31,138 bases of DNA from a virus. Positions 1-25,684 of this stretch are shown here, piece after piece. Within the stretch, counting starts at the first letter, position 1; every line of letters begins with the position of its first letter. The notes below the pieces were generated by a model that worked only from the letters and a program-made list of their open reading frames with translations, was not told the DNA's origin and did not search any database. Location: the UHGV virus genome UHGV-0171672; one strand, given 5' to 3'. Both the position numbers and the translations under genes were made by a program.

Positions 1-85
1 CTGGCAGCCTGAGTTCACAGATAAAACACTCTCCAGGAAACCCGGGGCGGTTCAAGGAGTAATTATTGTTCGGTATCAAAGGGAG

Positions 86-112
86 ACAAAAAAGCGCCCG
101 CAGGAGATTTAA
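86..112. other. Candidate attL core (integrase-distal flank)
   Basis: acaaaaaagcgcccgcaggagatttaa lies just 3' of the int stop; it resembles my memory of the P2 att core (A-run ... GGGAGATT). Not verified. Confidence 0.2.
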
Positions 113-193
113 CACACCTTACTCCCCTTGATGATTTACTTATTTTTCAATGACTAAATCAAAAAAAGGGGAGCAAATTAACGCAAATTACAA

Positions 194-1186
194 CTAGTCA
201 ATGGACAGTTTATGGACACTATCAGCCAGCGGATTAAAGCTAATCGCATCCTGTAAAAAGTCCGGTGAAAAATGCGCATACGTCATCGTTTGTTGAATCG
301 TGGCGTGCCCAAGGATTCGCTGTAACGTAACGATATTTCCGCCGTTCATCATGAAATGCGTGGCGAACGTGTGACGCATAACGTGAGTCGCCTGACCTTT
401 GGGTAAATCCGGTTTCACCTCCTGAAGGATATCCCGAAAACGGATGTAATCAGCCTGGTACAATAGCCCGGTTTTTCGGGTTTTTATCAACGAAAGCACC
501 GTATCAGAAACAGGAACCGCGCGGGATTTTCCATTCTTTGTGTTAAAGAACATTACGCGGTTACCAACGATATGCTCACCACGTAAGCCAGCTGCTTCCC
601 CCCACCTTGCGCCAGTGGAAAGACACAGAACAGCAACACGACGCGCATCCCCCTCGAGTCGTTCAAGCAGCCGATCAATCTCATCATCTGAAAGAAAGGC
701 CATTTCTGTATTCCTGACCTTGAGCTTACGTATTCCACGCACCGGGTTTTCGTTATGAAAAACCTCCGCATCAATCAGCGAGGTAAACATTGCAGACAAG
801 GCGCACAAATCACGATTAACACTGGAGGGCATTAATCCGGCCTGTAATTTGTCTGAACGATACCCGAGCATAAACTTTCGCGTCATCTCACTGGCGCGGG
901 GGTCCCTCATCTCACGGTTTATTTTTTCCAGCCTGACCCTGTAAGTATCCCCGTAAGGCTGATTCCGGCCATCAAGCACCCACCAGGCATCTATCAGTTC
1001 GGATAACCGACGCTGATCAGCTGGCTTGGCCTGCCACGGTTTATCGTGGAAATTCTGCAAAACATACCTTTCAAACTCCTGTGCCTTTGACTTCAGGGTA
1101 AAAATCTTACGGATCCGCTTTCCTTCCGTCCCTTGCGGTCTTACATCAACCTTATAACGCCCGTCTTTGAGTTGCTTAATCGACAT
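194..1186 (-). CDS. int: Tyrosine recombinase / phage integrase (P2 Int-like)
   Basis: ORF 194..1201; likely true start is ATG at 1186 (MSIKQLKDGRYKVDV...) preceded by GGAGGGG. N-terminus resembles P2 Int; C-terminal HxxR and H...Y catalytic motifs present. Confidence 0.9.
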   Translation of the reverse strand: MSIKQLKDGRYKVDVRPQGTEGKRIRKIFTLKSKAQEFERYVLQNFHDKPWQAKPADQRRLSELIDAWWVLDGRNQPYGDTYRVRLEKINREMRDPRASEMTRKFMLGYRSDKLQAGLMPSSVNRDLCALSAMFTSLIDAEVFHNENPVRGIRKLKVRNTEMAFLSDDEIDRLLERLEGDARRVAVLCLSTGARWGEAAGLRGEHIVGNRVMFFNTKNGKSRAVPVSDTVLSLIKTRKTGLLYQADYIRFRDILQEVKPDLPKGQATHVMRHTFATHFMMNGGNIVTLQRILGHATIQQTMTYAHFSPDFLQDAISFNPLADSVHKLSID

Positions 1187-1255
1187 GATTAGCCCCTCCA
1201 ACGGATAAATCAGCCGTACACTCTCTACGGAATGAAACCCGCTCGATGTACAGCG

Positions 1256-1597
1256 TTAGCCAGCATTGCGACGAGATCGGGGTGATTTTTGGGTGGCTGG
1301 GATTGAATCCTGATCGTCCTCCGACTGAATGGAGCCATCAAGAGAGAGAGCCGGAGCTATCTGACCGGCAGCAGGCATTGTCTTATCTTTTATTAGCCAC
1401 ATCATGTATTTTTCAAACCGATCAACTTGGAGAACCATCTCAACAATTTTGGCTCTGGCGCTTTTTTGCCCTGATTCATAGTTCCTTATGGCAGCTAAAG
1501 ACAACCCCGTAATATCCGCAAATTCCTTTTGCGTTAGCCCTTCAGCCTTGCGTATTTGACGTAGCTTTTTTGCATAGTCTATTGACAAGATAACCAT
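1256..1597 (-). CDS. C: Immunity repressor, P2 C-like HTH protein
   Basis: HTH segment LTQKEFADITGLSLAAIRNYESGQ and the motif GQIAPAL shared with P2 C; divergent from the cox-like gene. ATG at 1597 chosen over the upstream TTG of the ORF track. Confidence 0.8.
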   Translation of the reverse strand: MVILSIDYAKKLRQIRKAEGLTQKEFADITGLSLAAIRNYESGQKSARAKIVEMVLQVDRFEKYMMWLIKDKTMPAAGQIAPALSLDGSIQSEDDQDSIPATQKSPRSRRNAG

Positions 1598-1616
1598 TTG
1601 AGTATTAACCTCTCGC

Positions 1617-1642
1617 AAAAGATACTCGTACGAGTATCTTTT
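1617..1642. promoter_or_regulatory. 26-bp perfect palindrome in the C/cox switch region (candidate operator)
   Basis: AAAAGATACTCGT|ACGAGTATCTTTT read directly from the sequence, lying between the divergent C and cox-like starts. Confidence 0.5.
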
Positions 1643-1701
1643 ATAAACCTAAACAAACCTTCATGAGGCGCGACAAGCGCACCAACGCAAGAGGATAGCA
1701 A

Positions 1702-2226
1702 ATGCGGAAGTCAATTGCCGATAAAGAGTTATCTGACACACAAGCCCTTCAGGAAAACGACAGCATCACCGAATCCGTTGGCGCGGCAAACGACGATGAA
1801 CACCAAGAGGAAAAGAAAAAACGCACCTACAAAAAAGGGGCAACCTTGCGACTGGATGGCCCGGTAGCCGGACTTTGCTCACTTGAAAAAGGGGCAGCCT
1901 ATATCGGGTTGACAAAAGCTGCATTGCGCGTGGCGCTTCAGCGAAATCAGATGCCTGGACACAAGACCCGTTCAAACCCTGAAGATGAAAATTCGGATGG
2001 CGTGTGGTGGTTTAACGCCAGAGAGTGGGACAAGCTGGCTGACGAACTACCAGAATGCGAGCCGCCAGAATGGCACAACTGGAAAAGCTACTGGACATAC
2101 GACCGACAGAAAAGAAAGTTTTCCCCGGCAAACAAAGAAGACTGCCAGACCATCAATGGAAAGCGGGTTTACACAGGAAGAAAGTCAAAACTGGAGCAAC
2201 ACCAATACAGTGGAGGCAACCAGTGA
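1702..2226 (+). CDS. Cox/Apl-like excisionase-regulator with N-terminal extension
   Basis: First gene of the rightward operon, SD AGAGGA. HTH-like GAAYIGLTKAALRVALQRNQMP followed by VWWFNAREW, parallel to the P2 Cox pattern. 174 aa is about twice P2 Cox; an internal TTG start after AAGGGG is possible. Confidence 0.6.
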   Translation: MRKSIADKELSDTQALQENDSITESVGAANDDEHQEEKKKRTYKKGATLRLDGPVAGLCSLEKGAAYIGLTKAALRVALQRNQMPGHKTRSNPEDENSDGVWWFNAREWDKLADELPECEPPEWHNWKSYWTYDRQKRKFSPANKEDCQTINGKRVYTGRKSKLEQHQYSGGNQ

Positions 2227-2310
2227 CATCAAAACAAACCGGCAACAGCGAAATCCCAGGAATGAGATTTCGCCGCAGATGCTGTGGAAAATGGTTGTTA
2301 TGCAAGCAGC

Positions 2311-2766
2311 CTACCAGGCTGATGGATGATCATCATCAATATCAAACACATTTCTGTAAAAACGAGAATGTTGCAAGGGATGAATAAGCGACCCCCAACA
2401 ATCATAAATATCAGCCAGTTCGAACACATCGTATGAGAGATGTTGAGCAAACGATTCGGCACCTTCAAAAGACTCAAACACCTCATCATACAAGTGAATG
2501 TTTTCAGGATACGAAAGTGACAAGCAAAAACCAGACGTAGATTCCGTAACCAAGAAGACAAGGTGATATTTATCATTCACCAGTGACTGAGCACATTTTT
2601 TTACAGAGCGAAGAATCACAGGGGAACGCGCGCCAATACGAAAGAGTTCTGCATGAGCACGGGCATCAACAAAACTGTGAAACCCCTCACTTCTTGCAAG
2701 CTCACGTTCGGCAGCACGCAAAACCCAAAACCACCGCCCAGATTCGGATGTAAGGATAATTTTCAT
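2311..2766 (-). CDS. Hypothetical protein, antisense to early operon, low-GC patch
   Basis: 151-aa ORF with a single Met and weak RBS; region looks AT-richer than its flanks. No motif recognised. Confidence 0.4.
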   Translation of the reverse strand: MKIILTSESGRWFWVLRAAERELARSEGFHSFVDARAHAELFRIGARSPVILRSVKKCAQSLVNDKYHLVFLVTESTSGFCLSLSYPENIHLYDEVFESFEGAESFAQHLSYDVFELADIYDCWGSLIHPLQHSRFYRNVFDIDDDHPSAW

Positions 2767-3030
2767 ATGAATAAAGAGAAATCTCCGGATTATTTTGTGA
2801 AACGATTACAGGATGCAACAGAGTCAATGTTGATTGCCCTGAATAATTACTCTTACGAAGAGGCCGTAACGGTACTTGAGTGGATAAAGGAAAAAATAAC
2901 GGAAGACAGCATCGTCAAGATGCAGAGTATCAACATCTCCCGTGACAAAACATTTCCACTGCGAATACCGCCAAAACGACGACTGGTTTACTCGATACCA
3001 GTCTCAATGCAGTGCAAATTGCCGAAATAG
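2767..3030 (+). CDS. Hypothetical protein
   Basis: ATG at 2767 (MNKEKSPDYF...), 87 aa, helical-looking; starts immediately adjacent to the minus-strand ORF start at 2766. Confidence 0.45.
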   Translation: MNKEKSPDYFVKRLQDATESMLIALNNYSYEEAVTVLEWIKEKITEDSIVKMQSINISRDKTFPLRIPPKRRLVYSIPVSMQCKLPK

Positions 3031-3182
3031 TTTATGAGAAAACATAAATACTCCTTTGTGTGGTTGGTTATCGTTACAACAGTTCGGGCAAGAATTGCAA
3101 GGCGTAACGAAATTACCACAAAACCATGCGCCGGGCATGGCTAAAAACCCGGCACAAATTCACAGCAGCAGTAGGGATTTTT

Positions 3183-3527
3183 ATGAAGAAACCGGGAAAT
3201 TTTTCACAGCAGAATTTTCGAACAAGTGCCGAACGCCACGTTGCACGCCAGCACTTCCGCAAAAATAGTGCGACCACAACCACTGAAATCCATGCCACAC
3301 CAGACGGTCACCCGGTAAAACAAACCGGCAAGCACACCTGGACGATTGGCGACACTGGCATCGTTATTCACAAAAGTTTTCGCAGCCCTGTTACTGGCAG
3401 ATTTAATTTCACCCTGACTCGCGGGGATGATTACTTCGGACAGGACTTCACATTTTTTGAAGCCTTAAGAACGGCAGACAGATTAATCAGCGGCCTGCGT
3501 TTTCAATATCCGGGAAGCAAGCACTGA
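3183..3527 (+). CDS. Hypothetical protein
   Basis: ATG at 3183 preceded by AGGGA; an alternative ATG at 3126 lacks an SD. Confidence 0.5.
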   Translation: MKKPGNFSQQNFRTSAERHVARQHFRKNSATTTTEIHATPDGHPVKQTGKHTWTIGDTGIVIHKSFRSPVTGRFNFTLTRGDDYFGQDFTFFEALRTADRLISGLRFQYPGSKH

Positions 3528-4944: not shown

Positions 4945-5172
4945 ATGGTCGCCATCCTGAATGTGTGTTGCTGCCCCCCCCTGAACGTGGAAAGAAAAGC
5001 CCGCGCATCGCTGCGTTTATTCCGCGACGGCGTGCGGAATTTTTCACGCATAAAACCCCACGACTACCTGGTAATAAGAATCGGTTTTCGCTGGCGATTG
5101 CTGAGCAAAAACAACGGGGCGTCATGGGATTTATTAACGCACGAAACCTATAACAAAGAGGCCGCGTTATGA
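4945..5172 (+). CDS. Small hypothetical ORF containing a C8 homopolymer, coupled to dam
   Basis: Strong SD GAGGTGA before ATG 4945; ATGA overlap with dam start; C8 run at 4974-4981. Protein sequence is not obviously globular. Confidence 0.3.
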   Translation: MVAILNVCCCPPLNVERKARASLRLFRDGVRNFSRIKPHDYLVIRIGFRWRLLSKNNGASWDLLTHETYNKEAAL

Positions 5173-6113
5173 GCAAAGAACTGTTATCCGGCACGCCGCT
5201 TAAATGGGTGGGCGGAAAAAGTCGCATCATGAACACACTGAAGGCGCATCTGCCAGAAGCAGACTGCCTGGTTGAGCCGTTTGTGGGTGGCGCATCGGTA
5301 TTCATGAACACCAGTTACAAGCGTTACATCCTGGGTGATTCCAATGGTGCGCTGATTAATTTCTACCGGCAAGCCAGGGACAACACCGACAGCCTGATCG
5401 ACGAGGCGAAAACCCTGTTCCTGAACCACAACAACAGGGGTGACTATCTCATCATTCGCGAAACCTTTAACGCAGAGAATCATGCCTTCCTGAACAGCAG
5501 AACGGGAATAAGCGACCGCCGTGAACTGCGACTGGCCGCCATGTTTTTGTACCTGAACCGACACAGCTTTAACGGTTTGTTCCGCGTGAACGGAAAAGGC
5601 GATTTTAACGTGCCTTTCGGCTGCTACCGCAAGCCCTACTTCCCTGAGCGGGAAATCCGCGCATTTGCAGACAAGGCAAACAGCACCCGAACGCTGCTTA
5701 TCCACGCAGATTTTAAGGATACGCTGAACTCTGCCAGTCACCTGTTCGGCATGGGCAACACGCTTTGCGTGTACTGCGATCCCCCTTACCTGCGATTCAG
5801 TGGCCGGGACAATTTCACCGCCTACGGAAAACCATTCGATGAAGACGAGCACGTTCGTCTGAGGGCAGCGCTTGACCGCCTTTCACAGGAAACGGGCGGC
5901 ATGACCAGCATCACCATATCCAATTCCGACACACCGGAAACCAGACGCATTTATCAGGGTTACCGGATGAACGCCATCCAGGCACCACGAAGCGTTGGCG
6001 CAAGAACCCGGGAATCAGCACCGGAGGTTATCGCCACCCTGAGATGCATCACATCCGCCTTATCAACGGTTCGCACTTCTGCGCCACGAACATGGAAGAA
6101 GTACGCGTGCTGA
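5169..6113 (+). CDS. dam: DNA adenine methyltransferase (Dam-like N6-adenine MTase)
   Basis: KWVGGK AdoMet-binding motif near the N-terminus and catalytic DPPY motif. Confidence 0.9.
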   Translation: MSKELLSGTPLKWVGGKSRIMNTLKAHLPEADCLVEPFVGGASVFMNTSYKRYILGDSNGALINFYRQARDNTDSLIDEAKTLFLNHNNRGDYLIIRETFNAENHAFLNSRTGISDRRELRLAAMFLYLNRHSFNGLFRVNGKGDFNVPFGCYRKPYFPEREIRAFADKANSTRTLLIHADFKDTLNSASHLFGMGNTLCVYCDPPYLRFSGRDNFTAYGKPFDEDEHVRLRAALDRLSQETGGMTSITISNSDTPETRRIYQGYRMNAIQAPRSVGARTRESAPEVIATLRCITSALSTVRTSAPRTWKKYAC

Positions 6114-6141: not shown

Positions 6142-6492
6142 ATGGCAGTGATTTATATCGCCGGTCCCATGACCGGATGCAAAGACCACAACAGGACGGC
6201 ATTTTGCGTGGAGGACCTGAAACTTCGGTGCGCCGGAAACATCGTTCTTAATCCTGCCGTACTGCCTGACGGATTAAGCCAGCAGCAGTACATGAGTATT
6301 TGTATTCCGATGCCCATGTGTGCCGATGCCATTTACTTACTGGATGGATGGGAAGAGTCCGCTGGCGCACGGGCTGAGTACGCAATGGCGCTCAAACTGA
6401 ACATGCCAGTGTCATTCCCGGAAAACCGGGCAGCCGGCGAAACCGTCGCGCAGCTGCTTCACAAATCAAAAGCCGCACAGGCGACTGAGTAA
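6142..6492 (+). CDS. DUF4406-like protein (nucleoside 2-deoxyribosyltransferase-like fold)
   Basis: VIYIAGPMTG ... IVLNPAVLPDGLSQQQYM ... YLLDGWEESAGARAEY pattern matches DUF4406 as I remember it; SD GGAGGT. Confidence 0.7.
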   Translation: MAVIYIAGPMTGCKDHNRTAFCVEDLKLRCAGNIVLNPAVLPDGLSQQQYMSICIPMPMCADAIYLLDGWEESAGARAEYAMALKLNMPVSFPENRAAGETVAQLLHKSKAAQATE

Positions 6493-6930
6493 CCGACCGG
6501 AGATCGAAACATGATTGCGCGCAGAGCTACCAACCGTCTCACAGGCTTTATTCCAGGCAAGGTTGATCATGCACTCCATCACGGGGCTGTCACTTTCCTC
6601 AACAAAGGAGAGGCGCGCAATCATGCATTCCGGGGTGAGCACGTGGCGCTGGCTAATCAGTCTTTGATAGCTAAGCGCCTGCCATTCAGCCTTTTCAGCT
6701 CTGATAGAAAGAGAGGCAGCCATGACCTGCCACACCAGAAAGAGCACCACACTGGCGAAAACAAACGTTGCGCTGTCGCAAAAAATGAATGCGGCAACAA
6801 TCGCAAGGAAAGCGCTAATCCTCAGAACCAAGGAAGCGCGACGGTGGAGAAGGCTTGTCATGTGTTCAAGCCAGTAGCTGTACCACAGGTCAAAAAGAAT
6901 TTCGTAATCAGAAGGGAGCTTATCACTCAT
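6466..6930 (-). CDS. Hypothetical membrane protein, antisense orientation
   Basis: ATG at 6930 (MSDKLPSDYEILF...), two hydrophobic helices; the only plausible coding content in 6.5-7.3 kb. Confidence 0.35.
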   Translation of the reverse strand: MSDKLPSDYEILFDLWYSYWLEHMTSLLHRRASLVLRISAFLAIVAAFIFCDSATFVFASVVLFLVWQVMAASLSIRAEKAEWQALSYQRLISQRHVLTPECMIARLSFVEESDSPVMECMINLAWNKACETVGSSARNHVSISGRLLSRLCGF

Positions 6931-7188
6931 CAGAAACACCCCGCGTATGCAGACAATCACCAGTTGCCAGGTGATATTAATTCGCAACATTCTAACCACA
7001 TCAGCACGCAACACAAAAACCGCTTGCCAGCGCTCGTCGTGTCGGGTTACATTTCCGCTGCACCTCATAAAACGGGTGCCGGGATTTCCACCCCGCTGAC
7101 AAACGAAGCGCACAGCCGCGCCAGCGGTTTTTTTGTGCGTACTGTATCGCCACGTCTTTTTCGCGTCAGAATTATGGCGGGGCGTACA

Positions 7189-7603: not shown

Positions 7604-8020
7604 ATGAAGAGCGTTAAGGGACTTTCAGATATTCAGGACTTCTTTAACTGGATGTGGGCGGTGGATCCCCTGCTGGCTTCCCGCCTGAACAACTGGCACG
7701 ACTATTACCGCCGCGCCTGTAAACAGGCTGCCCGCAGCGTCACCACATACGGGGATTTCTCCTTCACCGTGGACGGTCGTTACCGCGTGGACGTGAAAGG
7801 TGACGGTGATGGCTTTGGTTTATTTCACATCAACGGCACCGACAGTACCGCCATCAGCTGGTCATCGTCAGAGATGGCACTGGTTCTGGAAATGACAACC
7901 CACAGCGTGGCCGTGAAAGGCATATACACCGCAGAAGACTTTATCGGTGAATACCAGCGCCTTCTCGTGCTGTACCGCGCGGCGTTTCAGGAGGTCACTG
8001 GCGGGGAGTACGACGCATGA
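7604..8020 (+). CDS. Hypothetical protein upstream of A
   Basis: 138 aa, SD GGAGG; ATGA overlap with A. Confidence 0.6.
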   Translation: MKSVKGLSDIQDFFNWMWAVDPLLASRLNNWHDYYRRACKQAARSVTTYGDFSFTVDGRYRVDVKGDGDGFGLFHINGTDSTAISWSSSEMALVLEMTTHSVAVKGIYTAEDFIGEYQRLLVLYRAAFQEVTGGEYDA

Positions 8021-10530
8021 GTGACCGCAATGCACAGCTGGCGTACCCGTGGAACGCACCGCTACCGGTTATCGATCCTGAAACGTTCGGCAGAGCACAA
8101 CCAACCGCATTACGCCAGGCCATTCAGAGCTACATCAACGAGGACATTCGCATTGATGCCAGACTGGATGAAGAAACCGTCTCCTTCCTGACAAACACAG
8201 ACGAAGGCAAGCGAATTAATTCGCATCTTCACCACGACGAAGAGCGTCGGGTCAGACTGGAAAAACTGGCGAAGCACAAACGCGAGAATCCGCCCACGGT
8301 GGTATCGGAAGCCATGGCAGAACTTCGCGCCCTGCCCTCGTTTCTTGGCAACGTGCTCATTCGTGATCTGGCGCGTTTAAACCGCAAACAACAAAGCGCC
8401 CGCAATGAAGGCGTGAAAAACAACAACACTCACGTGGCCGATAACTTCGTTCGCCGTGGACTGCGCACACGCCTGAAACGCATCGAACAGGTGAATGAAT
8501 GCTTCGCCACGACGGCATTCAAAGCCACCGCAGCGCGTCATCGCCTTGATGAATTACTCATGCTGCCACAACTCAACCGTGATCAAATTCAGCGCCTTGC
8601 CACACTAACGGCGGCGGCATTTTCCACCGAACTGGAACGCATATGTGATGAAGTTACTGAGCGGACAGGAAAAGGCGACGATAACCTGTTTACCTGGTTG
8701 CTGACTTACCAGCAGCTGGCGCGCATGGCAATAAAACTGGGCGTGAACCCACCATACTGGCCGTCACTCGAGATCAGACGTGACCGCCGCACGGCACCAG
8801 ACCCTGAACTGGTACCGGGTGCGGTAATGCGTATCACCTGCGCCACCTGGTGGAACAACCAGCTGCGCCACCTCGCTGATCTCTGGCGGGAGGAATTACT
8901 GCGTGCCGCCGGAAGAGTATCGCGCAAGGCATCCCCCTACATCAGCCATGAGTCACTCCAGGAATTCCGGGAGAAACGCCAGCGCACCCGTGATTTTCTC
9001 AAAAGCTGGGACATTGAAAACGAAGACGGTGAACGCTTGAGTCTGGAGGACGTGTACTGGTCAGGGCTGGGGAATCCGCGCAACCGCCGCAACGAGATGA
9101 TGGCCTGCGTCAGAGGGATGGAACAGGTCGCCGAATCGCGTGGTGACTCCGCGTTCTTCGTGACAGTAACCTGCCCTTCCCGCTTTCACAGCGTGAACGA
9201 GGACGGCAGCCTGAACCCGAAATACAACGGTGCCACCGTGCGCGATGCCAGTGATTATCTGGTTTACGACGTCTTTGCAGCTGCAAGAAAAAAACTCAAC
9301 AAAGAAGGCCTGAGCTGGTACGGGGTGCGCACCGTTGAGCCACACCATGACGGCACACCGCACTGGCACATGCTGGTATTCACCGCCCCGGACAATGAAG
9401 AACGCATCATTGAAATCATGCGTGACGCAGCAATCAAATCAGATCGCGCAGAACTGGGGAATGATATTTCTCCGCGCTTCAAGTGCGAAAAAATCGACCC
9501 GGCAAAAGGCACACCGGCAAGCTACATCGCAACCTATATTGGCAAGAACCTGGACGCCAGCACCTTTCACGACAATGACCCGAAAACCGGCAAACCTTAC
9601 GCCGATAAAGAATCGGGAAAAACCATGGCGGAAACCGTGGAAAACGCCATTGCCTGGGCGAGTCTCCACCGCATCCGGCAGTTCCAGTTCTTCGGTATCC
9701 CGCCCCGACAGGTATGGCGTGAACTCCGCCGCCTTGCCGGACAAATGGAGCGTAACCCCGCATCACCGAAGCGCCTGGACCATGACGACATTGACGCCAT
9801 TCTGGCCGCCGCTGACGTGGGGTGTTTTGCCACCTACATCAACCGTCAGGGCGGCGTGCTCATTCCACGCAACCTGTACCTGATCCGCACCGCATACGAA
9901 ACCGCAGATGAGGCCAACGACTACGGCGAATTCCCGCAGCGCATCTACGGAATTTGTGCCCCGTCGCTCGGCGAGCGCTACACCATCTGTACCCATCCGG
10001 ACGAATGGAAACTGGTCAGAAAAGAAGCGAAATCCGACAACAGCACGGACGAGGGTTTTGACGTTGGGGGCGGCTTCGCCGCACCTTGGACTCGTGGCAA
10101 TAACTGTCCCCATGATGAAAAAACAGACACCGGAGAGGGTAAAAACCCACCACCGGAAACCAGGAAAGAACAAAAACTGGTCGTCCCGGGAGGTGATTTG
10201 GGTGAGTGGTTAAGGTCACTGACCCCCACAAAGCGAAAACAACTCACCAGGCAGCTGAAAGATGCGCCATCTGACACAAAAACCGTGAAAACCGGCGGCC
10301 CCACCACGCCCGATGACGTCATACATGTGCGTACAGCATTGCCGCTGACTGACGTCACCACCACCGTAATCAAGTCGGCACTGAGCGCGACGGGCGAGGA
10401 GCTACACAGTGGCGCAGCACTTTCCGTACACAGAGGTGCACGCGTTCGCCTGCCTGACGGGCGGATTGTGCACTGGGATGAGAAATCACGAAGCCTGGTG
10501 GCAGCAGATCAACCGGAGGTGAACCCATGA
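8017..10530 (+). CDS. A: Rolling-circle replication initiation endonuclease (P2 gpA-like)
   Basis: HUH motif TPHWHMLVF and paired tyrosines YIATYIGK; 837 aa. Confidence 0.9.
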   Translation: MSDRNAQLAYPWNAPLPVIDPETFGRAQPTALRQAIQSYINEDIRIDARLDEETVSFLTNTDEGKRINSHLHHDEERRVRLEKLAKHKRENPPTVVSEAMAELRALPSFLGNVLIRDLARLNRKQQSARNEGVKNNNTHVADNFVRRGLRTRLKRIEQVNECFATTAFKATAARHRLDELLMLPQLNRDQIQRLATLTAAAFSTELERICDEVTERTGKGDDNLFTWLLTYQQLARMAIKLGVNPPYWPSLEIRRDRRTAPDPELVPGAVMRITCATWWNNQLRHLADLWREELLRAAGRVSRKASPYISHESLQEFREKRQRTRDFLKSWDIENEDGERLSLEDVYWSGLGNPRNRRNEMMACVRGMEQVAESRGDSAFFVTVTCPSRFHSVNEDGSLNPKYNGATVRDASDYLVYDVFAAARKKLNKEGLSWYGVRTVEPHHDGTPHWHMLVFTAPDNEERIIEIMRDAAIKSDRAELGNDISPRFKCEKIDPAKGTPASYIATYIGKNLDASTFHDNDPKTGKPYADKESGKTMAETVENAIAWASLHRIRQFQFFGIPPRQVWRELRRLAGQMERNPASPKRLDHDDIDAILAAADVGCFATYINRQGGVLIPRNLYLIRTAYETADEANDYGEFPQRIYGICAPSLGERYTICTHPDEWKLVRKEAKSDNSTDEGFDVGGGFAAPWTRGNNCPHDEKTDTGEGKNPPPETRKEQKLVVPGGDLGEWLRSLTPTKRKQLTRQLKDAPSDTKTVKTGGPTTPDDVIHVRTALPLTDVTTTVIKSALSATGEELHSGAALSVHRGARVRLPDGRIVHWDEKSRSLVAADQPEVNP

Positions 10531-11517: not shown

Positions 11518-11835
11518 ATGCCAACACAGGTTGCAACAGAGGGACGACTGGCAGCAGACCCGAACACAAGGAGAACAACCAAAGGAACCAACGTCACAAC
11601 GGCACAACTGGCGGTATCACTACCCTGCCATGGCGCAGAACAGCCAACCACAATGTGGCTTTACCTTATTTCATTCGGGAAGCAGCACGAAGAACTGGCA
11701 AAACACAGAAAAGGCGATCTGATTCTGGTGCACGGAAACTTGCAGGTAAACAGGTATCAGGACAAGTACGGGCAACAGAAAGAGGGCTGGCAGTTGCTGG
11801 CGCAAAGCATTATCAGCTCAAGAACCGGGCGATGA
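11518..11835 (+). CDS. SSB-like OB-fold protein, truncated (no acidic C-tail)
   Basis: GRLAADPNTRRTTKGTNVTTAQLAV ... WLYLISFGKQHEELAKHRKGDLILVHGNLQVNRYQDKYG parallels the E. coli SSB OB-fold core. Confidence 0.6.
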   Translation: MPTQVATEGRLAADPNTRRTTKGTNVTTAQLAVSLPCHGAEQPTTMWLYLISFGKQHEELAKHRKGDLILVHGNLQVNRYQDKYGQQKEGWQLLAQSIISSRTGR

Positions 11836-11845
11836 CTTCACGCAT

Positions 11846-11886
11846 GTTACCCTTAGCAGCGAGGGTAACACAGGATTTCTTTTTTC
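11846..11886 (+). terminator. Rho-independent terminator ending the rightward early operon
   Basis: GTTACCC-N10-GGGTAAC stem followed by ACAGGATTTCTTTTTTC. Confidence 0.6.
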
Positions 11887-12592
11887 AGTCAAACCGAAAT
11901 CGGCCGCTTGTCGCGTATGCATAGGTGACCACCGCACCCAGCGCATTCACACGCTTCTTCACATAAATCACATTACCATCCTGATAGTCACCGTATGGGT
12001 AGCAAATAAAGATTGTTTTTTGCAAATCAGGATCATCAACAAATGCCCCTGAACAACTTTTTGAGCTACCGCGACTGTACTCATAGGGAGCGGAATAGAA
12101 TGAATCTTCACCCGGAAGAAAATATATCAGCGTAACCAGGAGGGTAAACAGAATCATCCAGGTAAGAAGGCACATACCCGAAAAAAACTTAAGATACGAT
12201 GTAACCCCGGTAAATTTAGACCGATCAACCAGGTTCTTTTTCAACAGGCACAGTGAGACAAAAACCGAAAGCACCACAGACACTGAAACAAGGCAGTTTG
12301 TCGTGAACGAATAAAGGTAGGTAATTCTGTAAACATCGTTTCGCCACCAAATAAAAAGAAAAATCCCCCCCAAAACAGAAAGCGTGACAAAAGTTAAATA
12401 AGGATATGAGTAATTTTTCACAGTTCTCACCCGGCAGTCTCCCACTGACTCAGACAGATGAATATCATCACCACCTGCCACAAAAAATCGCAAGATCAAA
12501 ACTACACAAAAGCGCACGAAATTGCACAATTTTTCTAATGTACTTTTTCCCCATTCCGCCCGGTAACGGCGCTGGCTGAGGCCGGTTTGCAC
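11885..12592 (-). CDS. Multi-TM membrane protein (cargo island, module 2); start uncertain
   Basis: At least three hydrophobic helices plus a ~80-aa C-terminal soluble region. The first ~25 codons of the track ORF overlap promoter-like repeat copy A, so a downstream GTG (12421 or 12430, after GGGTGAG) is the more likely start. Confidence 0.5.
   Translation of the reverse strand: MQTGLSQRRYRAEWGKSTLEKLCNFVRFCVVLILRFFVAGGDDIHLSESVGDCRVRTVKNYSYPYLTFVTLSVLGGIFLFIWWRNDVYRITYLYSFTTNCLVSVSVVLSVFVSLCLLKKNLVDRSKFTGVTSYLKFFSGMCLLTWMILFTLLVTLIYFLPGEDSFYSAPYEYSRGSSKSCSGAFVDDPDLQKTIFICYPYGDYQDGNVIYVKKRVNALGAVVTYAYATSGRFRFD
12511..12576. repeat. Promoter-like direct repeat, copy A
   Basis: agcgcacgaaattgcacaatttttctaatgtactttttcccc... 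aligns at ~75% identity (hand alignment) with 15438-15501. Confidence 0.5.
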
Positions 12593-12759
12593 GGTGCACG
12601 AAAAACGAGGCGAGTAGTGGATGAGTAAAAATTAATAATAAGTATAAGCAATGTCGATAAACCAAGACACAACAAGTATTCAACACAATTAATCATGCAC
12701 GTGCAAATAGCAATAACATTAACACATTATTTATATAAAAACAATCTGATATTATTTCG

Positions 12760-12790
12760 GTTGTGGGCTTGGTATTTTCAAACCCACAAC
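12760..12790 (-). terminator. Perfect 8-bp stem hairpin downstream of the three-gene module (non-canonical terminator candidate)
   Basis: GTTGTGGG-N15-CCCACAAC, 35 nt past the stop of the 263-aa gene in an AT-rich spacer; no clean U-tract. Confidence 0.25.
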
Positions 12791-12824
12791 AATAATATTA
12801 TTTCGAGATATTAAACATAGACAA

Positions 12825-13616
12825 TCACCCTATTTTTCTATGCATTTTCATGAGTTCCCTTATTAAGCTAGCATGAAAGATTGATACATCAGAAATCCTT
12901 GTATCAATAGATGAATCAATATTATCAGAAACCTTTTGCTCAAATAAATCGCAGATACCATCAAGTGACTCAATATCTTTTTCCAACTTAGAAAAACCCT
13001 TAAATAGATATAATGAATCCCTTAACTCCCCAAGCTTTGAAAATAGTTGGCTATCTAGTAATGATATAAATTCATCAGAGGGAAGCCCCATCGCATCCTT
13101 AAAATCTTCCGTAACTTCAAAAGCTAATCCATTAATTTTAGGGAGAATAACTTCTCGTAACCAATACCCTTCGTTTATAGCTTCATTTCTTCCTTTATAA
13201 TGCTGCCACAAAGGAACCCCTACAGATGCAATTAGCGCAATAATTGAAATTGCTATAGAGTACCATTCAGGTCCTGATTCAGGAACTCTAACGATATTAT
13301 AGAGATTCCCCGATGAGGTTGAGGGGTAATATCCATTCAGAACATAATTATCAGGTTTATCATAAAGAAGGTGCGGTGTAAACTTCCTTTCATAACTATT
13401 GCATAATTTTAGATCGCTATTTTTTCCAATGCATATATCAGCATTAAAAATGTTTCCACTCTTTGGTTCTATTACGTGAGACTCTGAATTTTGCGAATCC
13501 ATGTTAGACGCGGTTCTTTCTAGATATGTCGCAGAGCAAGCGGATATATTAACAAAAAAAATGACAGGCAATGCTGTCATTTTAAAAACAGAACACAAAT
13601 CAGAAGAACGGAACAT
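12825..13616 (-). CDS. Lipoprotein-like membrane protein with internal TM helix (cargo island)
   Basis: N-terminus MFRSSDLCSVFKMTALPVIFFVNISAC has a lipobox-like ISAC; internal helix WYSIAISIIALIASVGVPLW; 17-nt overlap with the upstream gene. Confidence 0.6.
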   Translation of the reverse strand: MFRSSDLCSVFKMTALPVIFFVNISACSATYLERTASNMDSQNSESHVIEPKSGNIFNADICIGKNSDLKLCNSYERKFTPHLLYDKPDNYVLNGYYPSTSSGNLYNIVRVPESGPEWYSIAISIIALIASVGVPLWQHYKGRNEAINEGYWLREVILPKINGLAFEVTEDFKDAMGLPSDEFISLLDSQLFSKLGELRDSLYLFKGFSKLEKDIESLDGICDLFEQKVSDNIDSSIDTRISDVSIFHASLIRELMKMHRKIG

Positions 13617-13944
13617 TTCGATGTAATCCTCTTCTCACAGCCCTATCCAGCTCAGAAAGCATTCCTTCTTTATAATTCACTCCATCTAAAGATGTTCTGC
13701 TATAAAATTCATTCGGAGATGAAAAAAGAGGCAATATATTCTCTAGCATACCCAAAAAGTATGAGCTTGACACAACCACACCATTCGGAATTGATAGAAA
13801 AATCCTATCATTGTTATCAAAAGTAAAGCGATCTATGCCAAAGAAACTATATGCCTTGCGACCATTATCACGCCCAGCAAATAATTTCTTGCCGCCATCT
13901 TTAACTAATTTATTGAAATCTATATAAATATTTGCCATTTTCAT
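13600..13944 (-). CDS. Small STAS-like (DUF4325-like) protein, partner of the GHKL ATPase
   Basis: 114 aa; segment IFLSIPNGVVVSSSYFLGMLENIL resembles the SSSF-type motif of DUF4325/STAS proteins; SD GAGGAA; 11 nt after the ATPase stop. Confidence 0.55.
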   Translation of the reverse strand: MKMANIYIDFNKLVKDGGKKLFAGRDNGRKAYSFFGIDRFTFDNNDRIFLSIPNGVVVSSSYFLGMLENILPLFSSPNEFYSRTSLDGVNYKEGMLSELDRAVRRGLHRNVPFF

Positions 13945-13955
13945 TTACCTATTCC

Positions 13956-15332
13956 TCAGGTTCTTTGAGTTGCATTTTCCGGTAAAGGAAAACGTATATT
14001 AATCATAACTCCCGGAAAACGGGCTTTCTGCATACACTTAAGATAGGTACGATCTGGTTCAGATTCAAGCCCTGTATTATTAAATGGATAAGTGAATTTG
14101 TCACTTTGGTTATCTAACGTTTGCTTTTTCAACTTATAAGAACCATCAAAGTTTATATGTGTGCATCCAGAAATTAAAGACATTCTGATGTTTCCACTTA
14201 GTTCTTTGGATAGTTCTTTTAAACTATCATGCATATCCTGGAAAAACTTCAATAGCTCAATGGTTCCCGTACCAGAACTATCTGTCTCCGTTTCATTTTT
14301 ACAACTAACCCGCCCCTGCAAAGCAGCGACTGTAATCAAACCTTCTCTAAACATCCCTTTTTTATTTATGTGTTTTTCCACATAAGGGATTATGTGATTG
14401 TTATATGAATAATGTTCTAAAGAAAGTCCTGAAAAAGTTTCATCAATAGTTTTTCCAAAGTTAAAAACAGCTATTTCACATGTTGGCTGTTTTAAGCCAT
14501 TATTTACAAACCCCCTCAAATACCAACGCGGACGCTGCTCAAGCCCACAATGTCTCTCTGCATTATCAAGTAATTCGCCCATGCAAGATGTTAGATGGTT
14601 TTCTGCCTTGCTAACTAATTTTAATTGATGATCACTTAGACACTCGTTTATATAATTAGTGAATTTCTCAGACATTCTATTTTTGGTATCTTGTGCAAAT
14701 GCAGACGCATTTTCCTTGCCGATACTATCAGCAGAGAATATTCTTTTCTTAGGGTTATCTTTTTTCGATTTTTCTGTTTCATCATGCACCTTCCCTGGCG
14801 TCACTTTATTTATTTCTTTAACCAACCCGATGTCACGAATAATTTCTAAATATTTTTCATCCTTCGGATAAATGCCATTAAGTTGTACTTGAGCATCTTT
14901 TAAATTTATATTGTGACGTTTGGCTGAGCTCAGTGCAACACCAAGGAGACATTCCGCACCTAAACAATGCTTTTTATTTTTAGTATAATCAAGCAAATAT
15001 GATTTACGTTTACCCCTGGCAATCAATCTAGTTACACCATGAATAAACAAAAGAGATTTTTCTGGATGATCAAACAAATCGAAATATTTAGGTATTATTA
15101 TTCTATCTTCTTTGCGACGAAGAGTTGCAGTATCATATTTCTTTACGGATGAAATACTTTCAATAAAAGTAGCCACCTGACTTTTCACTGGTGTTACTTC
15201 GTCAGAAAAATGTAACCTTTCATAGGCTTTATATTTAATTCTTCTTTTATTTTTTCTCTCAACGCCTTTTAAAAAGCGAATCCAACCACGTAAAAAGCGT
15301 TTTCTTGCATCCTTTTTATCTATTTTTTTCAC
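13956..15332 (-). CDS. GHKL-type (histidine-kinase-like) ATPase with basic N-terminal domain
   Basis: N-box ELLDNAERH (encoded around 14551-14577) and Gly-rich DSSGTGTIELL; GTG start at 15332 after AAGGTGA; K/R-rich ~240-aa N-terminal region. Confidence 0.7.
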   Translation of the reverse strand: MKKIDKKDARKRFLRGWIRFLKGVERKNKRRIKYKAYERLHFSDEVTPVKSQVATFIESISSVKKYDTATLRRKEDRIIIPKYFDLFDHPEKSLLFIHGVTRLIARGKRKSYLLDYTKNKKHCLGAECLLGVALSSAKRHNINLKDAQVQLNGIYPKDEKYLEIIRDIGLVKEINKVTPGKVHDETEKSKKDNPKKRIFSADSIGKENASAFAQDTKNRMSEKFTNYINECLSDHQLKLVSKAENHLTSCMGELLDNAERHCGLEQRPRWYLRGFVNNGLKQPTCEIAVFNFGKTIDETFSGLSLEHYSYNNHIIPYVEKHINKKGMFREGLITVAALQGRVSCKNETETDSSGTGTIELLKFFQDMHDSLKELSKELSGNIRMSLISGCTHINFDGSYKLKKQTLDNQSDKFTYPFNNTGLESEPDRTYLKCMQKARFPGVMINIRFPLPENATQRT

Positions 15333-15429
15333 TATTCACCTTACTTAACAAACATCTATACTACTTCGTTGCAAAGTATACATATCACTTGCTAATACAC
15401 AATATGGCTTCGAGATAATCCGCAGCATC

Positions 15430-15456
15430 TGCACAATAGTGCACAAATTTGCATAA
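15430..15456. promoter_or_regulatory. Three TGCA(C/T)AA heptamers at 10-bp spacing (candidate regulator binding array)
   Basis: TGCACAAtagTGCACAAattTGCATAA; two related copies in repeat A (GCGCACG at 12512, TGCACAA at 12523). Confidence 0.35.
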
Positions 15457-15501
15457 TTTTTTTGAACGACTTTTTGCCCTTCCGGCCCGCGTGGCGGCTG
15501 G
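15438..15501. repeat. Promoter-like direct repeat, copy B (upstream of the GHKL ATPase operon)
   Basis: agtgcacaaatttgcataatttttttgaacgactttttgccc...; see copy A at 12511-12576. Confidence 0.5.
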
Positions 15502-15799: not shown

Positions 15800-16843
15800 T
15801 CAGCTGGCACCATCCTGAAGCAGCGAATAGGGATTAAAGCGCATCACTTCAACCCCAAGCCATTCATTGACATGCTTCATCGCTTCCATGACCGGTTGCA
15901 ACTCGTTGATGAAAAATACCCTCGCCGCCTTCTCAACGTCACCGAACGCCGCGTTCCCGTCAGGCATTGCCCCCATCAGCTGAGGCGGTACACGGTGAGC
16001 CGCAAGGATATCGTCGCGGGTACCCCCCTTGATGTTAAGGAATTCGTCCTTCGCGGTGATTTGCTGGAACGGCAGTATTTGCACACCATCCTTGCCGCCA
16101 CCTGGCGCGTGCAGAAGGATATTGCGGAACGCCCCCTTGCCACGGGATTCCGTGAGTGTTTTCTTGATGGCTTCCACGCTTTCAGCGTTTGCCTGGGCGG
16201 CACCAACATAGACAATGCACCCGGCATGTGAACCGTTGTCATAGTAGAGCTTGCGGAACGTATCCGCTGAGTTCGACAGACTCACCGACAGCAACCCACC
16301 GATATACTCCGGCATCCCGTAGATTTCCTGGTTGATATCGGGGTTCAGAACGTGGCACACAGCCCCCTTACGGAAAGCAAATTCAGAACCATCATCATTG
16401 AGGTACCAGTACGTATCGAGATCACTGCCCCGCCGCGTGTATTTCGCCAGCGCAGGACGAAGCGCAATGGGTTCACCGAACTTGTTGCGGCGGACTTCAA
16501 GATAGGCATTACCGAACACGAACCAGTCCAGCGCAAACGCGGAAAACGCCTGGCGGGACAGTAGCGGATGAGGAACAAAGCAGCCGTTCAGGGCATTACG
16601 CTTAAAATACAGGGCCGACTGGTGCCATGATGCACGACGCGAGGCGCGAGCAATGGCATTCCAGTCCATGGGGGTGTCATAGTAGCGGCCATTATCGGCG
16701 CACGACATGTTATCAAGCAGATCAAGACGGCTTGCTTCATAAGGACCGTCAAACGTGAAAGCACTGAGTGACGGCGCTGATTTCAGTGCATCAGCCAGTG
16801 AGCCCGTGCCGCGCTTTCCGGTGTATTTTTTACGTTTACTCAT
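15800..16843 (-). CDS. Q: Portal protein (P2 gpQ-like)
   Basis: 347 aa at the P2 Q position; sequence recognisable as P2-family portal; 5-nt gap after P. Confidence 0.9.
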   Translation of the reverse strand: MSKRKKYTGKRGTGSLADALKSAPSLSAFTFDGPYEASRLDLLDNMSCADNGRYYDTPMDWNAIARASRRASWHQSALYFKRNALNGCFVPHPLLSRQAFSAFALDWFVFGNAYLEVRRNKFGEPIALRPALAKYTRRGSDLDTYWYLNDDGSEFAFRKGAVCHVLNPDINQEIYGMPEYIGGLLSVSLSNSADTFRKLYYDNGSHAGCIVYVGAAQANAESVEAIKKTLTESRGKGAFRNILLHAPGGGKDGVQILPFQQITAKDEFLNIKGGTRDDILAAHRVPPQLMGAMPDGNAAFGDVEKAARVFFINELQPVMEAMKHVNEWLGVEVMRFNPYSLLQDGAS

Positions 16844-23713: not shown

Positions 23714-25684
23714 ATGAGCAAAAAACACTTTGAACTGATTACTGCCACCAACCGCGCAGAATTCGCTGAAAAAGTTAACAAGCGGTTACAGGAGGGCTGG
23801 GAACTTCTCGGTAATGCCGGTATTGCATCAGAGCCGGGAGTCCCCTGGTATCTCATGCAGGCTATGGTTTCAGGCAGTGATGACCAGGGAGGCACCATTA
23901 TCACCCCGACATCCGACAGCGAACCGGAGTGGTATTACGTTGTGGTGAGCGCTGGCCAGTCCAACTCTATGGCATACGGTGAGGGGTTACCTCTCCCGGA
24001 AAGTTACGATAAACCCGATTCGCGCATTCGCCAGCTGGCACGCCGCAGCACCGTAACCCCGAGCGGAAAAGCTTGTGCCTATAACGACATCATTCTGGCG
24101 GATCACTGCCTGCATGACGTGCAGGATATGAGCCAGTACAACCACCCGAAAGCCGACCTGAACAAAGGTCAGTATGGCTGTGTGAGTCAGGGATTGCACA
24201 TTGCGAAGCGCCTGCTGCCATTTATCCCGGCAAATGCGGGGATCCTTCTGGTCCCATGCAGCCGTGGCGGTTCCGGCTTTACAACCGGTGATGCGGGGCA
24301 ATTCAGCGAGATCGGCGGCGCAACTGAAAAATCCTGCCGCTGGGGAACGAACACGCCGCTGTACAAGGATTTAATCAGCCGCACAAAAGCAGCGCTGGCG
24401 AAAAATCCGAAAAACGTCCTGCTGGCCGTCTGCTGGACACAGGGCGAGGCAGATCTTGAGAAAGAACAAAACGCCGCACAGCATAAAGATCTTTTCACAG
24501 CCATGGTGAAGCAGTTCCGGGCTGACCTGGCCGATGTTGCGAAGCAGTGCAACCAGGGCAACCCTGAAAGCGTGCCGTGGATTTGTGGAGATACCACCTA
24601 CCACTGGAAAAAAACCTACGAAGCACAGTACGCAACCGTGTATGGCGGATACAAAAACAGCACTGAGAAGAATATTGTTTTTGTGCCTTTTGTTACGGAT
24701 GAGTACGGGAAAAACACCCCAACAAACGAGCCGACAGAAGATCCGGATATTGCGGAAGCGGGTTATTACGGTGCCGCATCCCGCAGTAGCGGAAACTGGG
24801 TAAGCCATCTGCGTGGAACGCACTTCAGCTCATGGGCCCGCCGGGGCATTATTGCCGATCGCATGGCGTCAGCAATCCTGCTTAACGTCGGCCGCACGCT
24901 GCCATTTATTGCGGGTACAGAGCCGGAACGCGTGGCAAAACCATCACAGGATGCACCGGGCGGCATCAGTAAGCCATCTTCACCGGAAGCAGAACAACCG
25001 GCAGTCAGACCGGGGCCGGTCACGCTCATGAGTCTGCTGGCATCATCTCCTGAACTGGAAAGCCAGGGCTGGACGCTGAGCGAAGGCAAAAACGGGGCCA
25101 ACACACCAAAACAACTGAAAGACATGCTGATCGGTGATGAGGAAGCAACAGGGAAAAAAGCCCTGAAACTGACCAAACAGGAAGGCAATACCTGGTATCT
25201 GGAGCATAAGGCCGGTAATGGTGCTGACCTTCTGAAAAATGGCGGGACTGTAAGTTGCCGATTCAAAATCGAGGGTGAGCTGAAAAAAGACCAGTACGCA
25301 ATGGCGATGTACTGGAAAACATCAGCATTACCGCAGGATGTGAAATTACTGGGGGCAGATCCAAATAATTTATTGCTCTCATTCTTTCTTCAGACAGACA
25401 GCGCAAACCTGAATCTGATGTATCACAAAACGCCAAACGAACAACTGGGAACCTTTGGTCAGTTCAATAACAACTGGCACACCATAGCGTTTCGTTTTGC
25501 GGGAAACAACAGCACCCAGGTAACACCGGTTCTGGATGGCGTGGACGGAAAACCGTTCATGCTTTCCACATCAAAAGCCGATGTTACCAACGACACGTTA
25601 CGCGTGACCGATATCACGTATCGGCCGACCTATACCGTACTGATTGACAGCCTGAGCGTTGTCGTAAATCAGCCACCGGCATAA
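23714..25684 (+). CDS. SGNH/sialate-O-acetylesterase-like cargo protein (NanS-p-like, DUF1737-type N-terminus)
   Basis: N-terminus MSKKHFELITATNRAEFAEKVNKRLQEGWELLG; GQSN nucleophile motif in VVSAGQSNSMAYGEG; 656 aa inserted between lysis and tail genes. Confidence 0.7.
   Translation: MSKKHFELITATNRAEFAEKVNKRLQEGWELLGNAGIASEPGVPWYLMQAMVSGSDDQGGTIITPTSDSEPEWYYVVVSAGQSNSMAYGEGLPLPESYDKPDSRIRQLARRSTVTPSGKACAYNDIILADHCLHDVQDMSQYNHPKADLNKGQYGCVSQGLHIAKRLLPFIPANAGILLVPCSRGGSGFTTGDAGQFSEIGGATEKSCRWGTNTPLYKDLISRTKAALAKNPKNVLLAVCWTQGEADLEKEQNAAQHKDLFTAMVKQFRADLADVAKQCNQGNPESVPWICGDTTYHWKKTYEAQYATVYGGYKNSTEKNIVFVPFVTDEYGKNTPTNEPTEDPDIAEAGYYGAASRSSGNWVSHLRGTHFSSWARRGIIADRMASAILLNVGRTLPFIAGTEPERVAKPSQDAPGGISKPSSPEAEQPAVRPGPVTLMSLLASSPELESQGWTLSEGKNGANTPKQLKDMLIGDEEATGKKALKLTKQEGNTWYLEHKAGNGADLLKNGGTVSCRFKIEGELKKDQYAMAMYWKTSALPQDVKLLGADPNNLLLSFFLQTDSANLNLMYHKTPNEQLGTFGQFNNNWHTIAFRFAGNNSTQVTPVLDGVDGKPFMLSTSKADVTNDTLRVTDITYRPTYTVLIDSLSVVVNQPPA

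Follow-up and report, generated by a model that had tools for sequence, protein, structure and literature searches.

The virus genome UHGV-0171672, a stretch of 31,138 nucleotides that we refer to at its full length as the window, is a complete P2-like prophage of Escherichia coli (an integrase adjoining dmsA, followed by early genes, gpA, portal, terminase and tail genes), and it carries on its minus strand a cassette of three genes, whose products of 458, 114 and 263 amino acids (aa) we call K, S and M. On balance, our comparative analyses favor the view that K-S-M is an anti-phage switch resembling VapKSC but equipped with a membrane protein as its effector. VapKSC is a three-gene anti-phage operon encoding VapK (STAS-GHKL), the 116-aa STAS antitoxin VapS and the PIN toxin VapC, in which VapK is proposed to phosphorylate VapS at Ser48 and thereby release VapC (PMC13373217). 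In the related CapK-CapS pair, CapK, a kinase composed of a helix-turn-helix (HTH), a STAS and a GHKL domain, phosphorylates CapS, a repressor with STAS and winged HTH (wHTH) domains, on Ser54 upon activation by single-stranded DNA (ssDNA) (Chambers et al., EMBO J 2026; PMC13373217). The gene order of the cassette is the same as that of VapKSC, namely kinase, STAS protein of about 115 aa and then effector, although the putative effector M lacks a PIN domain and would span the membrane once, whereas VapC is a PIN nuclease.

The argument begins with K. We recovered the sequences of VapK, VapS, CapK and CapS from the source data of PMC13373217 and aligned the VapK family using 48 sequences from 80 metagenomic vapKSC loci. 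When compared using hhalign (all pairwise hhalign E-values given here are single comparisons, not database searches), the K family matched the VapK family with E=8e-5 over 276 columns, K 76-456 versus VapK 11-296 of 302, in an alignment that spans the STAS-like domain, the N-box, G1, G2 and the C-terminal strand, and it matched CapK with E=0.005. Because of these two matches, K appears to be a VapK/CapK-type kinase to which a basic helix and several insertions have been added; relative to VapK (302 aa versus 458 aa) it has, besides the insertions, about 70 extra N-terminal residues that include the helix. The N-box of K, ELLDNAERH, aligns with WEIYANSFEH in VapK and SELIGNVRDH in CapK (which contains N218), its G1-like box aligns with VVDFGVGI of VapK and its lid with RGLGL of VapK. 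In the AlphaFold2 (AF2) model, the region preceding the GHKL domain follows the order beta-beta-alpha-beta-alpha-beta-alpha-beta-alpha, as in a STAS domain, and the GHKL domain itself is a Bergerat alpha/beta sandwich with the features of an anti-sigma serine kinase of the SpoIIAB type. A preliminary description of this DNA, prepared from its letters alone, had given K a very basic N-terminal domain of about 240 aa; basic character is indeed present, in a helix within residues 1-45, but residues ~72-235 are the separate STAS-like alpha/beta domain. There are 19 K/R versus 6 D/E in the first 50 residues of K, and across the family the first 45 residues have a median net charge of +10 (at least +5 in 175 of 189 representatives), so that the helix might be a nucleic-acid-binding or sensor element. 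The aromatic residue that stacks on ssDNA in VapK (F54) and CapK (W68) is not conserved in the K family, the position of F54 being occupied by the variable K121.

Is the nucleotide site of K intact? Our conservation set consisted of 189 family representatives with no more than 50% identity to each other, and E253, N257, G293, Q339, G354, G356, F364, G389 and N418 are invariant in all of them (189/189), while H261 is found in 188 and T357 in 178. That the nucleotide-site residues are invariant at such divergence leads to the conclusion that the motifs of K are not due to chance, and it bears out the earlier recognition of an N-box and glycine-rich lid in the C-terminal half of the protein (E253, N257, G354 and G356). 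A concern that the ATPase motifs might be degenerate was thus dispelled for N-box and lid but not for G1, in which the Asp retained by both VapK (VVDFGVGI) and CapK (VISDSGLGI) is mostly replaced: position 291 is N in 169 representatives, S in 15 and D in 3, and the family has N-F-G-x-T/S in place of the canonical DxGxG. This change suggests that nucleotide recognition has been altered. It could also be taken to mean that K is no ATP-dependent kinase at all, that its G1 Asn binds another nucleotide or none, and that control is exerted by binding alone, either as a partner switch without phosphorylation or as a pseudokinase scaffold; SpoIIAB-type proteins also act by stoichiometric binding. We think this improbable because there is no variation in the Mg-binding Asn257, in Glu253 or in either glycine of the lid, which points to a catalytic nucleotide site that has been maintained, and because an invariant serine at the acceptor position of S would be difficult to explain without phosphotransfer.

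Profile searches were less informative with respect to K itself. Neither HATPase_c nor HATPase_c_2 of Pfam matched the window protein at E<=1, and the gathering score was not reached; two of 36 relatives touched HATPase_c (best E=0.041) and one touched HATPase_c_2 (E=0.052), so that the comparison with HATPase_c put forward in the preliminary description failed for K and gave only weak matches for its relatives. The K family profile retrieved only spurious V-ATPase matches from PDB sequences. The family is nonetheless large, with 1358 representatives at E<=0.001 among 50%-identity clusters. K matches phrog_3364 (unknown function, E=2.7e-7), a profile of 304 positions and so about the size of VapK, and S matches phrog_37359 (unknown function, E=7.7e-4); because of these two matches, it appears that phage families of the kinase-STAS type are already present, without annotation, in PHROGs.

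S is the weakest link of our reading. The preliminary description had likened it to DUF4325/STAS anti-sigma antagonists and, as VapS is a DUF4325 protein (PF14213, E=2.7e-17), the combination of GHKL and DUF4325 would be the architecture of VapK/VapS. For our comparisons we assembled a diverse set of 26 S relatives from syntenic loci, with identities of 15-64%. Eight of the 26 matched PF14213, the best of them at 15-17 bits and E=0.001-0.02, and this was the only Pfam family matched by more than one of them. The diverse profile aligned with the VapS family in hhalign with E=0.022 over 90 collinear columns, in which VapS Ser48 falls on S60. A profile of the close S family searched against 177,635 PDB sequences had a single match, the STAS anti-sigma antagonist TM1081 (E=0.24), in whose alignment S61 falls on the Ser of DSFSLG. 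The AF2 model of S (predicted local distance difference test score, pLDDT, 89.8) has the order beta-alpha-beta-alpha-beta-alpha, as does VapS, and its helix alpha2 begins at residue 60. The only invariant residues of the 26 diverse relatives are G28 and S61, with G65 nearly invariant, and S61 directly precedes an aromatic residue, as does the proven S54 of CapS (SS54F). The invariant S61, or its neighbor S60, is a candidate for the residue that would be phosphorylated in a partner of the kind originally envisaged, and S resembles VapS in size, in the order of its secondary structure and in carrying a conserved Ser where helix 2 begins.

Several results weigh against this assignment. The 23-bit gathering threshold of PF14213 was reached neither by S nor by its relatives, which is a difference from VapS, and S and its 29 close relatives had no match in Pfam. 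A Foldseek search of the S model against the PDB (to 8 April 2026, which may lack 9Z7O) returned no significant match, the hhalign comparison between the close S family and the VapS family fell short of significance, and among PDB sequences the diverse S profile had no match at all. Against CapS the diverse profile reached only E=0.78. However, our positive control, the VapS family compared with CapS, gave E=0.5, that is, two validated substrates cannot detect each other, and such weak scores are therefore normal for a small STAS-type fold. We conclude that S is probably a divergent DUF4325/STAS-like protein, a likeness seen below the Pfam threshold in some of its diverse relatives and in the alignment of their profile with the VapS family, but not as a Pfam match of the window protein, and that K and S quite likely constitute a kinase-substrate pair of the VapK/VapS type.

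The linkage of the three genes is strict. We examined 45 loci in genomes of isolates, in contigs of viruses and in metagenomes, whose sources include Proteus, Yersinia, Idiomarina, Paraburkholderia, Undibacterium, Pseudoalteromonas, Ensifer and metagenome-assembled genomes (MAGs) of an Opitutaceae and a Pseudobdellovibrionaceae bacterium, and in all 45 an S-family gene is located directly downstream of K. The hidden Markov model (HMM) of the M family matches downstream of S in 37/45 and, in the remaining 8, the most divergent lineages, the third gene encodes a helical protein of 167-283 aa anchored by a transmembrane (TM) segment. M in the window has hydrophobic segments at residues 7-25 and 118-136, and its N-terminus ends in a lipobox-like ISAC. 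Behind a signal/lipobox-like N-terminus come a periplasmic segment that varies among homologs, a single TM helix, a stretch of basic residues and, at the C-terminus, an acidic helical domain in the cytoplasm. From this we predict that M crosses the inner membrane once and exposes its conserved helical domain to the cytoplasm. Homologs from distant operons share the TM helix, followed directly by D/E-x-F/Y-W-x-R-x-V/I-I-x-P and later by an acidic L-D-x-x-E-D/E; of 16 diverse M proteins all have W152 and nearly all P159. M had no match in Pfam, PADLOC, NCBIfam, PHROG or the PDB, the PDB profile search yielding coiled-coil noise.

What might M do? An alternative to its being the effector is that M is a sensor (responding, for instance, to envelope stress, to the injection of phage DNA or to a cue in the periplasm that its variable outer part would read) and signals to K-S, which would act on a host or phage target not encoded in the cassette, or that it is a superinfection-exclusion protein tuned by K-S. 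Prophage-encoded membrane proteins often serve superinfection exclusion, and across homologs M is conserved in its cytoplasmic part, whereas its periplasmic part varies greatly or is missing, as would be expected of a diversifying sensor surface. However, short forms of M in loci L004, L019 and L024 have no periplasmic segment, which means that M cannot generally work by extracellular sensing. Moreover, the cassette travels as a self-contained unit among Gamma-, Beta- and Alphaproteobacteria as well as other phyla, and this speaks against its needing a target elsewhere. The sensor of the characterized relatives is the kinase (PMC13373217). We therefore consider a sensing or exclusion role for M unlikely, and retain M as the putative effector.

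Between S and M there is a terminator-like hairpin followed by a T-run, and its counterparts in related cassettes (L012, L013, L014, L045, L048 and L026) show compensatory base changes. It is a candidate attenuator that may limit the expression of M relative to S, or it may be a by-product of the sequence coding for the signal peptide.

The preliminary description had compared K and S to the RsbW/RsbV partner-switching pair, and this raises the question of whether the cassette is a classical transcriptional switch, in which K would sequester a sigma factor or regulator of the host or phage, S would be the antagonist and the output would be gene expression rather than defense. It is true that the closest structural matches of K are the anti-sigma factors SpoIIAB, RsbW and UsfX, and that CapK and CapS regulate transcription (PMC13373217). 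Nonetheless, no sigma factor or other sequestered target lies beside K-S, the only conserved third gene being that of a membrane protein, and there is no PP2C-type phosphatase in the cassette or its called neighbors, so that of the earlier comparison the SpoIIAB-type kinase stands and the STAS-like partner is probable, whereas the sequestered target and the phosphatase of an RsbW/RsbV-like system are absent. K-S-M further differs from SpoIIAB-SpoIIAA and RsbW-RsbV in that K has its own STAS-like domain and basic helix, and in being mobile prophage cargo with a membrane protein instead of part of a developmental or stress regulon. With CapK-CapS the cassette shares the pairing of a STAS and GHKL kinase with a STAS substrate, in its own case a putative one. 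However, K and S have neither the N-terminal HTH of CapK nor the C-terminal wHTH of CapS, the lengths differ (368 aa for CapK and 182 aa for CapS, versus 458 and 114 aa), and whereas CapS is a DNA-binding repressor of a downstream immune operon, K-S is followed by a single gene, which encodes a membrane protein in 45/45 loci. These differences make a transcriptional output highly improbable.

The cassette lies within a low-GC minus-strand island between gpA with its small accessory genes and the portal gene, in the gpA-gpQ interval that Rousset et al. 2022 (PMC9122126) defined as a hotspot for anti-phage systems in P2. We queried 5426 complete E. coli genomes by megablast with window positions 11800-15500. 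The matches break at position 12612; 12612-15500 is present in 9 genomes, in 8 of which the 458-, 114- and 263-aa genes lie directly between gpA and the portal gene, while ~200 other genomes have 11800-12611 alone, that is, a 235-aa gene beside the phage SSB gene, with no K-S-M. GC contents agree with this break (K-S-M has 33.9%, the 235-aa module 44% and the flanking phage backbone ~55%), and consequently the unit is the three genes K-S-M, not two or four, and it is a horizontally acquired insert in the gpA-gpQ hotspot. The 235-aa membrane gene was considered as a component of the system and ruled out by this distribution, so that of the membrane proteins originally proposed as effectors of the pair only M, the one linked to K-S, remains as a putative effector.

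Neither the databases nor the literature appear to have recognized the cassette. Our gene boundaries and the 11-nucleotide gap between K and S agree with those first described, K having a GTG start, and in RefSeq K (WP_000717775) and S (WP_000781372) have identical boundaries and are both annotated as "hypothetical protein," as are the two genes that follow them. None of the four island proteins had a match at E<=1 in Pfam, NCBIfam or PADLOC. The silence of PADLOC is uninformative, since PADLOC v2 likewise found no meaningful match for VapK and VapS, only a weak match of VapK to DrmA. Table S5A of PMC9122126 catalogs WP_000717775 + WP_001761865 + WP_000781372 as a "hypothetical + hypothetical + hypothetical" locus, which was not among the systems cloned. 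Rst_3HP ("hp + hp + hp," PMC9122126) occupies the same P2 hotspot and likewise consists of three genes without recognized domains, each annotated as hypothetical. However, the pFR109 proteins of the validated Rst_3HP have different lengths (~340, 345 and 225 aa) and unrelated sequences and include no TM protein, and identity of the two systems was rejected; the K-S-M protein sequences are also absent from Table S2 of PMC9122126. Literature searches with the accessions, DUF4325, STAS+GHKL+defense and VapKSC returned no description of the cassette, and the GHKL+STAS immune modules in the searchable literature were confined to the Chambers paper and its preprint, with no membrane-effector version.

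Could K-S-M have a purpose other than defense, such as an addiction or stabilization (toxin-antitoxin) module that retains the prophage, or lysogenic conversion unrelated to phages? About a quarter of P2 hotspot loci carry non-defense cargo, for instance partition systems and toxins (PMC9122126), and toxin-antitoxin-like logic would also stabilize the element. However, simple addiction needs no sensor kinase with a conserved active site, and the close analog VapKSC is anti-phage (PMC13373217). In addition, outside P2 the cassette is associated with restriction-modification (R-M) systems and integrases, the neighbors among the 45 loci including type III R-M genes, integrases and phage genes. 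In locus L004 (1373-5823) and in L005 and L006 (both 1-3397), K-S-M directly follows a type III-like R-M pair (N6_N4_Mtase + ResIII). This echoes the placement of capK-capS, 88 of 443 pairs of which are located just downstream of an R-M system (PMC13373217), and VapKSC and K-S-M are alike both in their association with defense loci and in the absence of a phosphatase from either operon. A 2026 study of the P2/P4 hotspots in Nucleic Acids Research, in which P4 loci only were tested, found that 6 of 8 randomly chosen loci of unknown function protected against phages, which raises the prior probability that K-S-M is a defense system. A purely non-defensive role seems very unlikely to us.

Table 1. 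Positions in the window of the K-S-M cassette, its genes and motifs, and adjoining features
Feature	Position	Strand	Remarks
K-S-M cassette, including upstream AT-rich leader	12612..15500	-	insert in P2 gpA-gpQ hotspot
K, 458-aa STAS-like + GHKL (SpoIIAB/VapK-like) putative Ser kinase	13956..15332	-	GTG start
K residues 1-45, strongly basic N-terminal helix	15198..15332	-	AF2 helix 6-36; charge
K residues 72-235, alpha/beta domain with STAS-like topology	14628..15119	-	AF2 model; hhalign to VapK
K residues 240-455, GHKL (Bergerat-fold) nucleotide-binding domain	13968..14615	-	
K residues 253-261, N-box ELLDNAERH (E253, N257, H261)	14550..14576	-	
K G1-like box VFNFGKTI, Asn291 replacing the canonical adenine-contacting Asp	14445..14468	-	
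K residues 351-357, G2/lid motif DSSGTGT (G354, G356)	14262..14282	-	
S, 114-aa probable divergent DUF4325/STAS-like protein, putative kinase substrate/switch (antitoxin-like)	13600..13944	-	
S residues 56-68, VVVSSSYFLGMLE; candidate phospho-acceptor S61 (or S60), N-terminus of helix alpha2	13741..13779	-	
10-bp hairpin then T-run, 17 nucleotides past the S stop, spanning alternative M start (Met13)	13558..13583	-	
M, 263-aa membrane protein, putative effector	12825..13616	-	
M residues 118-136, TM helix	13209-13265	-	
M residues 146-159, AINEGYWLREVILP, conserved motif adjoining the TM helix on its cytoplasmic side	13140..13181	-	
235-aa open reading frame (ORF), four hydrophobic segments, adjoins cassette	11885-12592	-	
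Replication endonuclease gpA	8017-10530	+	
Portal gene	15800-16843	-	

With regard to the surroundings of the cassette, the 235-aa ORF, which may be one more accessory gene, matches phrog_1416 (unknown function, E=1.5e-49) with its C-terminal 90 residues. A promoter scan found 15 sites versus 12.3 expected from shuffled sequence, which is no better than shuffled. Elsewhere in the prophage, a 656-aa protein is encoded at 23714-25684 (+), where the lysis genes give way to the tail genes and GC is lower (about 0.50). This protein has DUF1737, SASA sialate-O-acetylesterase-like (E=3e-13) and DUF6645 (E=1.5e-44) domains and no PADLOC match, and is likely a second cargo gene, possibly for a surface-glycan esterase. 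A 215-aa ORF at 6466-7113 (-), on the opposite strand within the early operon, is hypothetical in RefSeq (WP_225390634), has no match in Pfam or PADLOC and may be a further accessory gene. The early region also encodes, at 5169-6113 (+), an orphan Dam-like D12 N6-adenine methyltransferase (Pfam E=1e-51; PADLOC orphan methyltransferase E=5e-76), which plausibly functions in self-protection or anti-restriction.

How might the K-S-M cassette operate? In the VapKSC-like model that we favor, S would bind the cytoplasmic domain of M in the uninfected cell and keep M inactive. A cue of infection would activate K, possibly phage nucleic acid sensed via the basic helix and the groove between its STAS and GHKL domains, and the active kinase would phosphorylate S on the invariant Ser61, or on Ser60. 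Phosphorylated S would then release M, and free M would damage or depolarize the membrane so that the infection is aborted. As no phosphatase is encoded, the switch would be one-way and fire only once, and the hairpin between S and M may help by keeping M scarcer than S. A bolder proposal is that K-S-M represents a widespread and previously unrecognized family of anti-phage systems whose membrane-disrupting effector is gated when a STAS-like protein is phosphorylated, which would make it the first anti-sigma kinase/STAS switch with a direct connection to the membrane, and in which the remodeled G1-Asn pocket and basic sensor helix could respond to another nucleotide and/or another trigger (phage RNA, DNA or protein) than the ssDNA of CapK and VapK; we offer this tentatively and regard it as possible but rather doubtful.

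GHKL-kinase and STAS-substrate modules were recognized as immune controllers in 2026 in two forms, the transcriptional switch CapKS and the nuclease toxin-antitoxin VapKSC (PMC13373217). K-S-M has a kinase homologous to that of VapKSC and would share its sensor-switch logic, but differs in the class of its putative effector, in its nucleotide pocket and in its basic helix. If our model is true, the cassette would provide a third output for the GHKL/STAS phospho-switch, namely a membrane effector, and the phospho-switch would also be mobile cargo of the P2 defense hotspot. The family-wide change of Asp to Asn in the nucleotide pocket of K poses a concrete biochemical question, and the predicted key residues (N257 of K, S61 of S and W152 of M) make the model directly testable. 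Moreover, because current Pfam, NCBIfam and PADLOC models miss the K family, defining it would annotate many "hypothetical" genes of proteobacterial prophages and defense islands.

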